A DNA stretch of 64,000 bases from Longimicrobiales bacterium (GTDB lineage Bacteria > Gemmatimonadota > Gemmatimonadetes > Longimicrobiales > Gaopeijiaceae). Shown piece after piece: positions 42,754-55,197 of this stretch. A program made the position numbers and the translations under genes. The notes under the pieces are model-generated. The model saw only the letters and a program-made list of their open reading frames with translations. It was not told the DNA's origin and made no database searches. The stretch covers positions 224,001 to 288,000 of the forward strand of contig OZ241869.1 of assembly GCA_965202805.1 (NCBI GenBank), in the 5' to 3' direction. Position 1 is the stretch's first letter. Each line of letters opens with the position of its first letter.

Positions 42754-44493
42754 GTGGAAACCGGCCCCGGAAAGCCGGCAGGAGGGCTTCGCTACGCGGC
42801 CAACGAGTCGCCGCCGCATCCGGCCTCCTTCCTCCTTGGACTGCAGGTCGCCGTGCTGGTATGCACGCCCGTGGTCGTGGTCACCACCATCGTCACGCGC
42901 GCGGCGAATCTGACCGGCGCCTACCTGTCCTGGGCCATCTTCGCCAGCATGGTCATCGGCGGGCTCACCACCATCGTGCAGGCTCGGCGAGTCGCGGGCA
43001 TGGGGGGCGCCAACCTGATGATCATGGGGGCCTCCGGAGCCTCCATCGGGGTCGCGGTGCTGGCGCTGGCCGCGGGTGGTCCCGCGTTGCTCGCCGTGCT
43101 GGTGATCGCTTCGGGGCTCTTCCAGCTCGGTCTGGCGGCGCGCCTGGTCCTGCTCCGGCGAATCATCACGCCGGTCGTGTCGGGCACGCTCATGGCGCTG
43201 ATCGCCGTCACGGTGATGCCCATGGGGTTCGGGCTGCTGACCGAGGTGCCGGCGCAGGCGCCCACGGCCGCCGCGCCTGTCATCACGCTGGTCACCGCGG
43301 CTACCGCGCTGGGCCTGATGCTGCGCGCCCCCCGACTCCTGAGAGCCTGGACGCCGGTGGTTGCCCTCGGCCTGGGATGCGCCACGGCCGGCTTCTTCGG
43401 CATCTTCGATCTCACGGCGGTTCGCGAAGCCGGCTGGTTCGGGGCTCCCGCCGCGGCGTTGCCCGGTTTTGACGTCCGGTTCGACTCGAGCTTCTGGCTG
43501 CTCCTGCCGGCCTTCCTGTTCGTCACCCTGGTCATCACGGTCAGGCAGGTCGGCGACGCCATCGTCATGCAGCGCCTCTCTCGGCGCGAGCAAAAGGCGA
43601 TCGACTTCCGCAGGGTGGAGGGGGCCGTGGCGGCGTGCGGTGCGGGGACCCTGCTGTCGGGGATCGCCGGCGTCCTGCCGATCTGGCCCTATCCGGCCGG
43701 CATCGCCATGGCGGAGGGCATCGGCGTGGCAGCCCGGCGGGTGGGCGTCTACATCGGGGCCATCTTCATCGGCCTGGCGTTCGTTCCCAGGATCACCGCC
43801 CTCGTGCTGTCCATTCCGGGGCCCGTGCTGGGTGCCTATATCGTCGTGGTCATGGGGCTCGTCTTCGCCCGCGGCATGCGCGTGGTCTTCCAGGCGGACG
43901 GAGGGCGTCACAGCTCGCTGATCGCCGGATTCTCCTTCTGGGTCGGCATCGGCATCCAGTTCCAGGCGATCTTCCCGCAGTACCTGGGCACGCCCGCCGC
44001 GCAGATGCTGGCGAACGGGCTTACGGCCGGCGGGGTGACCATCCTCCTGCTGAACCTGTTCCTGGAGCTGACCGGGCCCCGGAGGCGCAGGGTCGAGATG
44101 CGGCTTGGTCAGGACAGCCTGCGCACCCTCGACGCATTCGTGGTCGGATTTGCGGAAAAATACGGGTGGGACGGCGAGGGAAGGGAGCGTCTCAGAGCAG
44201 CATCGGAGGAAGCGCTCCTCAGCCTCGCCCGGCAGGAGGAGGACGCAACCCGGGCCGCGGACCGGCGGCGCCTGCGCGTCGTCGCCCGCAACGACCGCAG
44301 CGGAGCCATCCTGGAGTTCAGCGCAGCCACCGACGCGGGGAATCTGGAGAACCGGATCGTCCTGCTCAGCGACCTTCCGGACTTCGAGAGCAAGCGCGAC
44401 CTGTCGCTGCGGCTCCTCCGCCACTACGCGTCATCCGTGAAGCACCAGCAGTATCACAACGCGGATGTCGTCACGATCCGCGTGGACAGGTAG
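42754..44493 (+). CDS. NCS2 (xanthine/uracil permease)-fold membrane protein fused to a degenerate HATPase_c/RsbW-like domain
   Basis: LRYAANESPP..LLGLQ, ITPVVSG, SIPGPVLG; soluble C-terminus LRAASEEALLSL...DLSLRLLRHYASSVKH..VVTIRVD. Confidence 0.82.
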   Translation: METGPGKPAGGLRYAANESPPHPASFLLGLQVAVLVCTPVVVVTTIVTRAANLTGAYLSWAIFASMVIGGLTTIVQARRVAGMGGANLMIMGASGASIGVAVLALAAGGPALLAVLVIASGLFQLGLAARLVLLRRIITPVVSGTLMALIAVTVMPMGFGLLTEVPAQAPTAAAPVITLVTAATALGLMLRAPRLLRAWTPVVALGLGCATAGFFGIFDLTAVREAGWFGAPAAALPGFDVRFDSSFWLLLPAFLFVTLVITVRQVGDAIVMQRLSRREQKAIDFRRVEGAVAACGAGTLLSGIAGVLPIWPYPAGIAMAEGIGVAARRVGVYIGAIFIGLAFVPRITALVLSIPGPVLGAYIVVVMGLVFARGMRVVFQADGGRHSSLIAGFSFWVGIGIQFQAIFPQYLGTPAAQMLANGLTAGGVTILLLNLFLELTGPRRRRVEMRLGQDSLRTLDAFVVGFAEKYGWDGEGRERLRAASEEALLSLARQEEDATRAADRRRLRVVARNDRSGAILEFSAATDAGNLENRIVLLSDLPDFESKRDLSLRLLRHYASSVKHQQYHNADVVTIRVDR

Positions 44494-44541
44494 CGCCCGC
44501 GGCCGGACATCCCGCCCGGGAGGACGAGGGCGCAAGCCGGC

Positions 44542-46386
44542 TCACAGCAGCCGCCGCACGATCAGCTCGACGCATTCCTCGGGCTCGAGTTTCTCGGTGT
44601 CGAGCCGCAGGTCCGGGTTCCGGGGCTTCTCGTAGGGGCTGTCGATGCCGGTGAAGTTGCCGATCTCGCCCCTCATCGCCTTGGCGTAGAGTCCCTTGGG
44701 ATCGCGCGCCGCGCAGACCTCGAGGGATGCGTCGACGAAGATCTCCCTGAAGTCGCCGGGGTCGAACAGGCCGCGGGCGAAGTCCCGTTCGGACCGGAAG
44801 GGGCTGATGAAGGACACGATCACGACCAGCCCCGCGTCGACCATGAGACGAGCCACCTCGGCAACCCTGCGGATGTTCTCCACCCGGTCCGCCTCGGTGA
44901 AGCCGAGGTCCCGGTTGAGCCCGTGGCGGACATTGTCGCCGTCCAGCAGGTAGGTGTGGTTCCCCTCGGCGTGGAGGCGCTGCTCGAGCAGGTTGGCGAC
45001 CGTGGTCTTGCCGGATGCCGAGAGCCCGGTCAGCCACAGGCAGCGGGCCCGCTGCAGCTTGAGTTCCTGGCGGGCCTCGCGGGTGACGTGGAAATCCTGC
45101 CACCGGATGTTGGATGCGCGCTTGAGCGCGAAGTTGATCGTGCCGGCCCCCGCGGTTTCGTGGGTGGTCCGGTCGATCATGATGAAGCTGCCCAGCCCCC
45201 GGTACCGGTCGAAGGGCGCGTAGGGGATCGGCCGGTTGGTCGAGATGTTGACCGTGGCCAGATCATTGAGGCTCAGCGTGGTGCCCGCCAGCCTGGTCCC
45301 CCGCGACACATCCAGCCGGTACCTGATCCGGGTTACGGTCGCGGTCACTTCCCGCGAATGGATCTTGAGCAGGTAGGAACGGCCGACAACCAGCGGGCGA
45401 TCGTGCATCCAGATCAGATTGGCCTGGAAATGGTCGGTCACGCCCGGGGGGTTGAAGGCTTCCGCGATGACGTCGCCCCGGGTCACATCCACCTCGCTCG
45501 CCAGGGTCAGCGTCACCGAGTCGCCCCGCTCGGCCTGCTCCCGGGTGCCCTGCCACACCACGATCGACTCCACGACGGTCTCCACTCCCGACGGGGATAT
45601 GCGCACGCGGTCCCCCACCGCAACCTTTCCGGCCGCGATCCGGCCGCTGTAGCCGCGAAAGTCGAGGTTGGGGCGGTTGACGTATTGCACGGGCATCCGG
45701 AAGGACTCCCTCTCCATGGACGACTCGACGTCAACCGTCTCCAGGTGCTCGAGCAGCGTGGGGCCGGAATACCATTCCGCGGACGCGCAGCGATGCGTCA
45801 GATTGTCTCCCGCAAGTGAAGATACGGGTATGATTTGCAGGTTCTCGACACCGACCTCGCGCGCCATCGACCGGTACCCGTCCGCGATCGCTTCGAAAGT
45901 GCTCCGATCCCAGAGCACCAGGTCCATCTTGTTGACTGCGAGGACCAGGTGCCGGACCCCGAACATGACCGCGATGCGGGTGTGCCGGGCGGTCTGGGGC
46001 AGGATCCCCTTGCGGGCGTCGGCCAGAACGACCGCCAGATCCGCATTCGAGGCTCCGGTCGCCATGTTTCGGGTGTATTGCTCGTGGCCGGGCGCGTCGG
46101 CGACGATGAACCGGCGCCGGGGCGTCTCGAAGCTGCGGTAGGCGACATCGATGGTGATGCCCTGCTCGCGCTCGTCGCGCAGGCCGTCCACCAGCAGCGC
46201 CAGATCGGTCTCGTCGCCCTGCGTGCCCCAGCGCCGGGAATCCTCCTCCACCTTCCGCAGCTCATCGGCGAAGACCTGCCGGCAATCATGGAGCAGCCGG
46301 CCCAGGAGGGTGCTCTTGCCGTCGTCCACACTGCCGCACAGGACGAAGCGCAGGGGAGGTCGCGCTGGCGGGGGGGAAGGGGCCAT
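44542..46386 (-). CDS. cysNC: Bifunctional sulfate adenylyltransferase subunit 1 / APS kinase (NodQ-like)
   Basis: CGSVDDGKST, EREQGITIDVAY, GHEQYTRNM, NKMD; WLTGLSASGKTT, LDGDNVRHGL, RDPKGLY. Confidence 0.95.
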   Translation of the reverse strand: MAPSPPPARPPLRFVLCGSVDDGKSTLLGRLLHDCRQVFADELRKVEEDSRRWGTQGDETDLALLVDGLRDEREQGITIDVAYRSFETPRRRFIVADAPGHEQYTRNMATGASNADLAVVLADARKGILPQTARHTRIAVMFGVRHLVLAVNKMDLVLWDRSTFEAIADGYRSMAREVGVENLQIIPVSSLAGDNLTHRCASAEWYSGPTLLEHLETVDVESSMERESFRMPVQYVNRPNLDFRGYSGRIAAGKVAVGDRVRISPSGVETVVESIVVWQGTREQAERGDSVTLTLASEVDVTRGDVIAEAFNPPGVTDHFQANLIWMHDRPLVVGRSYLLKIHSREVTATVTRIRYRLDVSRGTRLAGTTLSLNDLATVNISTNRPIPYAPFDRYRGLGSFIMIDRTTHETAGAGTINFALKRASNIRWQDFHVTREARQELKLQRARCLWLTGLSASGKTTVANLLEQRLHAEGNHTYLLDGDNVRHGLNRDLGFTEADRVENIRRVAEVARLMVDAGLVVIVSFISPFRSERDFARGLFDPGDFREIFVDASLEVCAARDPKGLYAKAMRGEIGNFTGIDSPYEKPRNPDLRLDTEKLEPEECVELIVRRLL

Positions 46387-54644: not shown

Positions 54645-54747
54645 GCGGGATCCGCGGAAGGACCGGGGCGTCTGCGCCACCGCAGCGGGCCGGGGCCCAT
54701 ACCGGCAACGGGTCCGCTTCCGCCTCATCGGCACCGTGAGGGAATCC

Positions 54748-55197
54748 ATGGATTTGCAGGTTGGCTGGGAGAGAGTGGCCGGTGTGCTGATTGCGTCGCC
54801 CGCGGGGCGGGTCGACAGCGTGAACAGCGCGGACTTCCGTGCGGCCATGGAGTCGGGAATCCCGCAGGGGGAAAGGGCCCTGCTGCTTGATCTGCAGGAT
54901 CTTTCCTACATGAGCAGCGCGGGGCTGAGCGTCATTCTGATGGTCGCCAGAAAGTTCAGTCAGGCCGACCAGACGATTGCCATGTGCGGACTGTCGGGAC
55001 CGATCCGCTCGGTCGTGTCCCTGAGCGGCTTCGACAAGATCATCCCGGTCCACGAGTCCCGTGCCGCGGCCCTCGAGGCGTTTCCCGCGGTCGATGAGAC
55101 CGATGCCGGCCAAATCGATGCCGAGGCGGCGCGGCCCGCTCCGGACGAGAGTCGATCGGATCGTCCGTCGTGGTCCTTCAAGAGGCACTCGATGTGA
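54748..55197 (+). CDS. STAS anti-sigma-factor antagonist
   Basis: PAGRVDSVN, LLLDLQDLSYMSSAGLSVIL, LSGFDKIIP. Confidence 0.92.
   Translation: MDLQVGWERVAGVLIASPAGRVDSVNSADFRAAMESGIPQGERALLLDLQDLSYMSSAGLSVILMVARKFSQADQTIAMCGLSGPIRSVVSLSGFDKIIPVHESRAAALEAFPAVDETDAGQIDAEAARPAPDESRSDRPSWSFKRHSM

Follow-up and report, generated by a model that had tools for sequence, protein, structure and literature searches.

A probable oxidation and sulfation gene cassette inserted in a sulfate-activation locus of a sponge-associated Gemmatimonadota bacterium

The window analysed here is a stretch of 64,000 nucleotides (nt) from a Longimicrobiales bacterium (Gemmatimonadota; assembly GCA_965202805.1, contig OZ241869.1, positions 224,001 to 288,000), in which a putative oxidation and sulfation operon lies between a permease gene and two STAS genes (Table 1). 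Seven minus-strand genes follow each other in the order cytochrome P450 (P450) 'a', MPAB_Lcp_cat oxygenase, Sulfotransfer_3 protein, P450 'b', P450 'c', CysD and CysNC. The six junctions between them, read 5' to 3', are a 14-nt overlap, ATGA, a 40-nt gap, ATGA, TTGA and TGATG, exactly as an earlier note on this DNA had written them. The operon which that note described from the letters likewise stands, as the seven open reading frames (ORFs) are all above the Pfam cut-offs; all ten ORFs of the region carry the claimed domains. The two STAS genes diverge from the 5' end of the operon, while the permease gene converges on its 3' end across a gap of 48 nt. The STAS genes had been called twins, which they are not, since the first carries an additional 90-residue domain. 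A scan of 45 window proteins detected no domain of a polyketide synthase (PKS), nonribosomal peptide synthetase or terpene synthase, in agreement with the earlier reading, but several type I PKS genes lie elsewhere in the genome. In the following, "frame" refers to the permease, cysNC, cysD and STAS genes and "cargo" to the P450, oxygenase and sulfotransferase genes; G000 denotes the genome of the window, other G numbers relative genomes, and L numbers DNA loci fetched around homologues.

Table 1. Genes of the locus, with positions counted from the first letter of the window (PAPS, 3'-phosphoadenosine 5'-phosphosulfate; APS, adenosine 5'-phosphosulfate).
Gene product	Positions	Strand	Layer	Features and matches
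SupE-type permease	42754..44493	+	frame	NCS2-fold membrane domain and C-terminal RsbW/UsfX-fold domain; Pfam Xan_ur_permease 1.8e-31
CysNC (ATP sulfurylase large subunit and APS kinase fusion)	44542..46386	-	frame	PAPS supply; NF004035 910 bits, cut-off 715
CysD (ATP sulfurylase small subunit)	46386..47297	-	frame	NF009214 472 bits, cut-off 413
P450 'c'	47294..48640	-	cargo	canonical I-helix VGHDT; Pfam
P450 'b'	48637..50100	-	cargo	haem Cys present, I-helix acid absent; Pfam
PAPS-dependent sulfotransferase, family without a name	50141..51178	-	cargo core	Sulfotransfer_3 1.7e-19
Lcp/MpaB-fold haem oxygenase	51175..52368	-	cargo core	PF09995 (MPAB_Lcp_cat, DUF2236) 1.1e-24
P450 'a'	52355..53791	-	cargo	canonical I-helix AGHET; Pfam
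STAS and 90-residue domain fusion	53982..54644	+		STAS by Pfam; extra domain matches no known family
STAS protein with SSAG serine motif	54748..55197	+	frame	TIGR00377 60.5 bits, cut-off 53.45

The region is covered in all 30 of its bins by contigs from four of four runs of four other studies, and one of these contigs, 7,998 nt long, spans 47062-55059. Its GC content (65.5-69%) is similar to that of the remainder of the window. Nine genes compared with G006 show purifying selection (dN/dS 0.12-0.32), as does the third P450 compared with locus L039 (0.17). At least half of the region's words occur in 14 runs, eight of which, from two studies, are labelled sponge metagenome, and no RNA run is among those listed; the host is a sponge-associated Gemmatimonadota bacterium. 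The start codons of P450 'a' and P450 'b' are uncertain, and a scan of the locus for promoters and terminators returned chance level only.

The distribution of frame and cargo was compared in 40 relatives, 18 of the same genus and 22 others. The sulfotransferase was found in 8 of the 18 and in none of the 22, the permease family in 17 of the 18 (1-11 matches per genome) and likewise in none of the 22. DNA fetched around the closest permease copies of the same-genus genomes displays, in 8 of the 18 (G001, G003, G005, G008, G011, G013, G014 and G016), the frame at the same site without P450, oxygenase and sulfotransferase. The order at these empty sites is permease, cysNC, cysD, STAS and a PQQ dehydrogenase, with an HNH gene inserted in G001; the STAS gene present there is the second of the window (54748-55197). 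G017 has the same empty order as far as its contig end. Cargo of the window's type occupies the site in G006, G002 and G012 and, reshuffled, in G010; in G018 and G004 the same site holds a different cargo, a GPP34-P450 with other sulfotransferases, and the cassettes of G007 and G009 are located at other sites. Because the frame occurs without cargo and the site carries different cargoes, the brackets (permease and STAS) are to be grouped with cysDNC, and the tailoring genes are to be regarded as cargo. The locus consists of two layers, a fixed sulfate-activation frame and a swappable tailoring cargo. The linkage of permease and STAS genes to the enzyme operon, on which the earlier note had built, therefore largely fails in other genomes. 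As a separate observation, mobile DNA between cysD and cysNC splits the frame in G012 and G002 (L064, L065), and cysNC and the permease look broken in G012.

The composition of the cargo was tallied in loci fetched around sulfotransferase homologues, excluding the duplicates L036, L040, L041 and L051. Among 13 loci from genomes of other lineages, six contain the oxygenase, five these P450s, five a GPP34-P450, three cysDNC, one STAS and none the permease. The 14 close metagenome loci (sulfotransferase at least 50% identical, several of them near-duplicates) hold the oxygenase in 13, a P450 in 13, cysDNC in four, and STAS and the permease in one each. Of the more distant loci, the 39 of at least 6 kb were counted and 25 shorter ones left out; the oxygenase stands beside a more distant sulfotransferase in 14 of them. 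A check set fetched afterwards (11 loci from 10 genomes, with G372 excluded as a duplicate of L039) has the oxygenase in all 11 loci, a P450 in seven, cysDNC in five, and STAS and the permease in two each. The constant core of the cargo is thus the Lcp/MpaB-like oxygenase together with this sulfotransferase family. Two oxygenase clades, about 26% identical and well separated in a quick tree, substitute for each other beside the sulfotransferase. Relatives of the latter occur in genomes labelled Acidobacteriota, Nitrospira, Latescibacterota, Caldilineaceae, Paracoccaceae, Deltaproteobacteria and Syntrophobacterales. Within the phylum, they are present in 17 of 401 genomes (five candidates scored per genome), which belong to 2 of 12 families.

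In a search that covered mainly open-access main texts, we found no paper describing the pairing of an Lcp/MpaB protein with a sulfotransferase, although Fieseler 2007 and later surveys of sponge biosynthetic gene clusters may include it; sulfotransferases go unmentioned in the main texts of PMC9864124, PMC9531527 and PMC11706023. Each part has a known relative; the locus is an orphan tailoring cluster, less integrated than first proposed, in which the enzyme pairing appears undescribed. The GPP34-P450 fusions of sponge symbionts (PMC11706023) share the frame site in G018 and G004 and the partner sulfotransferase family in the five loci counted above, but are absent from the window. Such fusions directly adjoin one or two sulfotransferases in L046, L047, L048, L050, L052, L021 and L056. 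Several loci of other metagenomes (L111, L112, L116, L117, L119, L120, L124, L125 and L130) possess a unit of Lcp-like oxygenase, sulfotransferase and small catalase-family protein; this three-gene unit is followed by hpnCDE in L112 and by hpnCD in L117.

The sulfate-activating genes point to transfer rather than assimilation. CysNC is present as a single full-length copy and CysD is the sole PF01507 match of the genome, in which neither CysH (PAPS reductase) nor a sulfite reductase was found; a role in sulfate assimilation was rejected on these grounds. As the genome has no sulfate-reduction genes, its gene content assigns cysDNC to sulfation, with PAPS made for transfer. Rhizobia sulfate their Nod factors by NodH with a PAPS supply of its own, NodPQ, and the comparison drawn in the earlier note holds insofar as the sulfotransferase lies beside CysD and CysNC. 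Unlike in rhizobia, no nod genes are present, the partners are oxygenases, and cysDNC is the genome's only copy. It probably also feeds SwfB, a protein of the swf polyketide clusters considered below, and a swfB-like protein, matched in full or in part in all eight empty-frame genomes, is a likely PAPS user there. The permease is not required as a sulfate importer, since the genome has three SulP-family genes.

The predicted structure of the oxygenase (pLDDT 90.3) has its best Foldseek match in LcpK30 (5o1l, E 3.9e-7, TM-score 0.66), followed by t-anethole oxygenase. Arg155, Thr159 and His189 correspond to Arg164, Thr168 and His198 of LcpK30; Arg155 and His189 are invariant and Thr159 is kept in at least 90% of 44 rows. 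Lcp cleaves polyisoprene, for which these three residues are described as crucial in PMC5522427, and the fungal MpaB cuts the terminal olefin of a farnesyl chain to an aldehyde, as PMC6900556 reports. The oxygenase resembles LcpK30 (PDB 5O1L/5O1M) and MpaB in its globin-type fold, the Arg/Thr/His triad and equivalents of Arg195, Arg202 and Trp211. It differs in an identity of only 19% and in its context of sulfotransferase, P450s and PAPS synthesis, in contrast with the rubber catabolism or meroterpenoid cluster of its counterparts.

In the sulfotransferase, both motifs which we take to bind PAPS are conserved at their key positions in 26-30 of 30 rows. Of 8000 candidates scored, 425 are homologous to it at E<=1e-20, among them a protein of the cultured Tistlia consotensis that is 63% identical. 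The sulfotransferase has no NCBIfam match, its PDB matches are weak (a PKS sulfotransferase domain, E 8.8e-4, and TPST), and a genome search between it and SwfB gave no match at E<=1e-5. The haem Cys and ExxR are present in all three P450s. The acid-alcohol pair of the I-helix is kept in 'a' and 'c', which are 58% identical to each other, and the acid is lost in 'b', whose I-helix reads ASHVT in all five members of its clade; several other oxygenase-linked P450s likewise have no such acid. The cassette P450s form a separate group; their nearest named models, terpene-oxidising CYP170A1 and pentalenene oxygenase, are matched far under the cut-offs and do not fix a substrate. A short-chain dehydrogenase/reductase (SDR) gene, with CCR/DFR-type reductases as nearest solved relatives, belongs to the cassette in 3 of 10 same-genus, 2 of 13 other-lineage, 2 of 14 close metagenome and 3 of 11 check-set loci, and the genome's own SDR, at G000:C1:1485660-1486676, is 67% identical to the cassette copy of G006. 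The G009 cassette contains an SDR-P450 fusion of 812 residues (L018:10593-13031).

The explanation we tentatively favour, at somewhat less than even confidence, is that the cassette acts on an isoprenoid, most likely squalene or another prenyl chain like it, and turns it into an oxidised and sulfated lipid. CysD and CysNC, by their family membership, make PAPS. The haem enzyme, if it acts as Lcp and MpaB do, would add O2 across a trisubstituted C=C bond and release an aldehyde, which an aldehyde-reductase-type SDR, carried in the cassette by several relatives and elsewhere in this genome, would reduce to the alcohol. The P450s, served by redox partners encoded elsewhere, would then oxygenate the molecule further, and the sulfotransferase, whose enzyme class is evident, would cap a presumed hydroxyl with sulfate. 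The SupE-type permease and STAS proteins belong to the frame. Support comes from the neighbourhood of the pair, which a squalene-synthase-type gene adjoins in three lineages (L039/L090/L091; L100; L112/L117), with the hpnCDE genes of L112/L117 above NCBIfam cut-offs. Among 17 loci fetched for the sister oxygenase clade, four (L080, L081, L084 and L086) likewise have such a gene next to the oxygenase, and some squalene-synthase loci additionally hold DXS, IspH and an MMPL transporter. An FDFT1-like gene, in all cases under the model's cut-off, occurs in 18 of 19 genus genomes versus 2 of 10 other relatives and lies at G000:C1:2215873-2216757 in the present genome; PF09995 is found in all 19 genus genomes, a cyclase in two of them. 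The near-complete genomes G002, G007, G009 and G010 retain both cassette and FDFT1-like gene; with the queries used, they yielded neither a type I PKS (E<=1e-50) nor a sterol methyltransferase. An acyclic isoprenoid is favoured because it is the sole candidate that these four could supply from their own genes.

Several observations weigh against this explanation. Squalene synthase was found in the fetched DNA of 0 of 11 check-set and 0 of 10 same-genus loci, and the evidence for squalene comes mostly from the sister clade of oxygenases rather than from that of the window. G045 (completeness not given) has the cassette without a PF00494 match, which 12 of 13 genomes do have. The FDFT1-like gene also occurs in genus members without the cassette, so its co-occurrence is not specific. 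The oxygenase has no counterpart of Glu148, the catalytic base of Lcp; the position aligns to Ala138/Asn139, where the alignment is loose. According to PMC5522427, Lcp without Glu148 retains 2-20% of its activity. The cassette has no ferredoxin or reductase gene, and the genome's SDR is encoded at the swf locus, about 1.2 Mb from it. Finally, the sulfotransferase family accepts partners other than the oxygenase, since, of the 13 other-lineage loci, five lack the oxygenase and have a GPP34-P450 beside the sulfotransferase, one has swfA and one has none of these. Of the scaffold-less oxidise-and-sulfate unit proposed in the earlier note, a tailoring unit with PAPS supply that recurs across phyla stands, and we found no description of it; its isoprenoid or sterol substrate is only probable.

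The missing glutamate and the unusual I-helices are also compatible with a route in which the oxygenase makes an allylic hydroperoxide without cleavage, which a partner (P450 'b' here, a catalase-like protein elsewhere) converts into an alcohol or epoxy-alcohol for sulfation. A catalase-family gene indeed accompanies oxygenase and sulfotransferase in 8 of the 39 longer distant loci, none of them with these P450s, and its only PDB match, a weak one (E 0.91), is the coral allene oxide synthase. This gene, however, is absent from the present genome and accompanies the sister clade only, the characterised members considered (Lcp, MpaB) all cleave, and loss of the I-helix acid by itself does not prove a peroxide-using P450. 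We regard this route as quite improbable.

Sterols from the host or from other symbionts are a further conceivable substrate, which the cassette would hydroxylate and sulfate to polyhydroxy-sterol sulfates, the oxygenase clipping a side-chain double bond. Synthesis of sterols or hopanoids by the bacterium itself was rejected, as neither a cyclase nor an epoxidase was found in the genome. Sulfated sterols are typical sponge products. The genome, despite having no cyclase or squalene epoxidase, possesses a sterol methyltransferase, a GPP34-P450 and a KshA-like Rieske protein beside another SupE copy, and for this reason it probably edits outside sterols. This region (L024:8835-19999; G000:C1:1913849-1925445) also includes a spondin-domain gene and an RND pump. 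The sister oxygenase lies within a sterol-editing island in three relatives (L071-L073), and sterol gene clusters are described as common in Ircinia symbionts in PMC9531527. Nevertheless, a search of the four near-complete cassette genomes found no methyltransferase, no sulfotransferase locus contains a sterol-specific gene, and the cassette P450s are only about 23% identical to a symbiont CYP51. A sterol substrate therefore appears unlikely, though it deserves consideration.

The patchy occurrence of the cassette across several phyla of sponge symbionts, its parts varying freely in order and number, and its lack of a scaffold gene would also suit a phase I / phase II detoxification kit, in which P450s of broad specificity and the oxygenase would attack assorted defence compounds of the host, to be made exportable by sulfation. 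Such a kit is hard to reconcile with the fixed pairing of oxygenase and sulfotransferase, even in distant lineages, which together with the squalene neighbours points to one pathway; moreover, neither a dedicated regulator nor an efflux pump is constant. We give this interpretation little credence, hardly less than the hydroperoxide route.

The genome contains a tandem swf cluster (G000:C1:1461352-1487395; L031, L032) with two copies each of swfA, swfB and swfC and an inserted SDR gene. Each copy follows a STAS gene and a 90-residue gene that belongs to no known family. The cassette might accordingly tailor an alkyl chain from these polyketide synthases, with which it has STAS, 90-residue and SDR genes in common; in addition, the cassette of L038 lies behind a swf remnant and the sulfotransferase of L045 adjoins swfA. 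But of the 21 sulfotransferase-bearing genomes searched, only seven yielded swfA (G002, G007, G009, G010, G041, G045 and G046 are among those where it was not found), and SwfB carries a sulfotransferase domain of its own. With four near-complete cassette genomes in which no type I PKS was found, an obligatory swf scaffold was rejected, and any swf-derived substrate is very improbable. The swf cluster (swfABC; PMC3908369) is similar in its sulfotransferase chemistry and in the SupE-like permease, STAS and STAS-small-domain fusion genes that flank swf in fosmid pPS11G3. It differs in that the window has no PKS, reductase-sulfotransferase fusion or radical SAM gene, swfA and swfB in one operon being present only 1.2 Mb away, and in that the cassette also occurs in swf-less genomes.

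The permease links the locus with these clusters as well. Its C-terminal tail is 65% identical to the permease of pPS11G3, which is listed as a SupE homologue (PMC3908369 Table 1); by this similarity to a homologue of SupE the permease is placed in the known SupE type, of which it is one of eight paralogues in the genome. One paralogue precedes a SupA-type PKS, as in the sup cluster, in contrast to the present copy, which adjoins cysDNC. That SupA-type PKS (L029:2-10252) has a methyltransferase domain, and a second SupA-like locus lies near G000:C1:652410. The membrane domain is homologous to NCS2 transporters (PF00860 above cut-off; UapA, E 2.5e-27), while TIGR00801, at 125 bits, remains under its cut-off of 291.8. 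The positions which we take to bind the nucleobase in NCS2 proteins, a His in transmembrane helix (TM) 1, a Glu in TM8 and Gln/Glu-Asn in TM10, are altered to Val/Thr, Arg264 (in 105 of 121 homologues) and Ala-Gly, respectively. Arg264 would suit an anion.

The tail was described in the earlier note as RsbW-like, and the predicted structure agrees (8ih8: E 8.2e-8, Z 15.3, root-mean-square deviation 2.0 over 114 aligned residues); the fold is seen only there, as no Pfam HATPase domain matches, and the catalytic motifs are lost. Ser490 replaces the N-box Asn in 109 of 121 homologues, Asn being among none of the top residues listed, and is aligned with the Asn of the RsbW encoded elsewhere in the genome in a weak profile alignment that is not significant (probability 2.3%). 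No conserved Asp or glycines occur at the G boxes (DxG, G2). The N-box Asn, the DxG of G1 and the G2 glycines are the ATP-binding motifs of RsbW/SpoIIAB kinases, and because they are lost, the tail, judged by its residues, cannot be an ATP-dependent kinase. An active partner-switch kinase was rejected accordingly.

Both STAS proteins are above the TIGR00377 cut-off, with SSAG invariant in 13 rows. The fusion of STAS with the 90-residue domain corresponds to ORF15 of pPS11G3 (PMC3908369), and next to the swf-type PKS genes of this genome its two parts are encoded separately; the 90-residue domain had no usable match in an Atlas search. The earlier note had proposed that the product is coupled to a membrane-linked partner switch; on this reading, the permease would sense or transport the product and control the switch through the RsbW-like domain and STAS. 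The fold of the tail, the retained serine motif and the place of both genes in the frame speak for such a coupling, and so does a weakly predicted complex of tail and STAS (score 0.43, best of three controls 0.00, partner pLDDT of 88 or more, at least 87% of contacts shared between runs). The mark applied to such predictions is passed by 116 of 157 solved pairs and by 2 of 215 mismatched ones, at scores <=0.60 by only 18 of the solved pairs and by both mismatches, and the pass may reflect likeness, because RsbW-RsbV complexes are solved. The tail shares its fold and the adjacent serine-motif STAS partners with the anti-sigma kinases RsbW, SpoIIAB and UsfX, but is fused to a transporter and devoid of the ATP-binding motifs, with no sigma factor or phosphatase nearby. 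Eight genomes have the frame without cargo, the cargo mostly occurs without the frame elsewhere, and a true RsbU-RsbW-STAS set is located elsewhere in the genome (L034). The proposed coupling is thus not borne out and, as a whole, highly improbable: a kinase switch is excluded, whereas the predicted docking of STAS on the dead domain, gating transport, is possible.

Among the neighbouring genes, the TetR-TolC-MFP-RND set (32157-39069) was rejected as part of the cassette, since the RND gene is also found at empty sites. A small gene and a PIN-domain gene at 40358-42057 are likely a toxin-antitoxin pair, which is absent from several relatives; the PIN frame continues without a stop into an agmatinase-family gene, the two being separate in G018 and G005. 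An ORF of 235 residues without Pfam match (41878-42585, minus strand) overlaps the 3' end of the agmatinase gene and is 78-93% conserved in relatives. Three large proteins with Ig-like repeats, one of them with leucine-rich repeats, are encoded at 15448-23832 and are of the eukaryote-like type typical of sponge symbionts.

To our knowledge, the makers and enzymes of the common sulfated terpenoids and steroids of sponges are mostly unknown. It is conceivable, though in this full form rather unlikely, that sponge symbionts of many phyla share sideways a pathway in which a globin-type oxygenase cuts isoprenoids and the pieces are sulfated, so that bacteria would be the source of some "sponge" sulfated terpenoids and steroids. 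The anionic product would leave through a nucleobase-fold carrier with its site Glu changed to Arg, gated by STAS docking on its inactive kinase domain, which would make it a split counterpart of the SLC26 transporters. The accessory genes of sup and swf clusters (SupE, STAS) mark a PAPS hub that accepts different tailoring cargo, and the compact, PKS-free cassette with its constant oxygenase-sulfotransferase core offers cloneable candidates for the sulfated terpenoids and steroids of sponges. If the favoured isoprenoid explanation is true, the Lcp/MpaB family would gain a third kind of role, in bacterial lipid tailoring.

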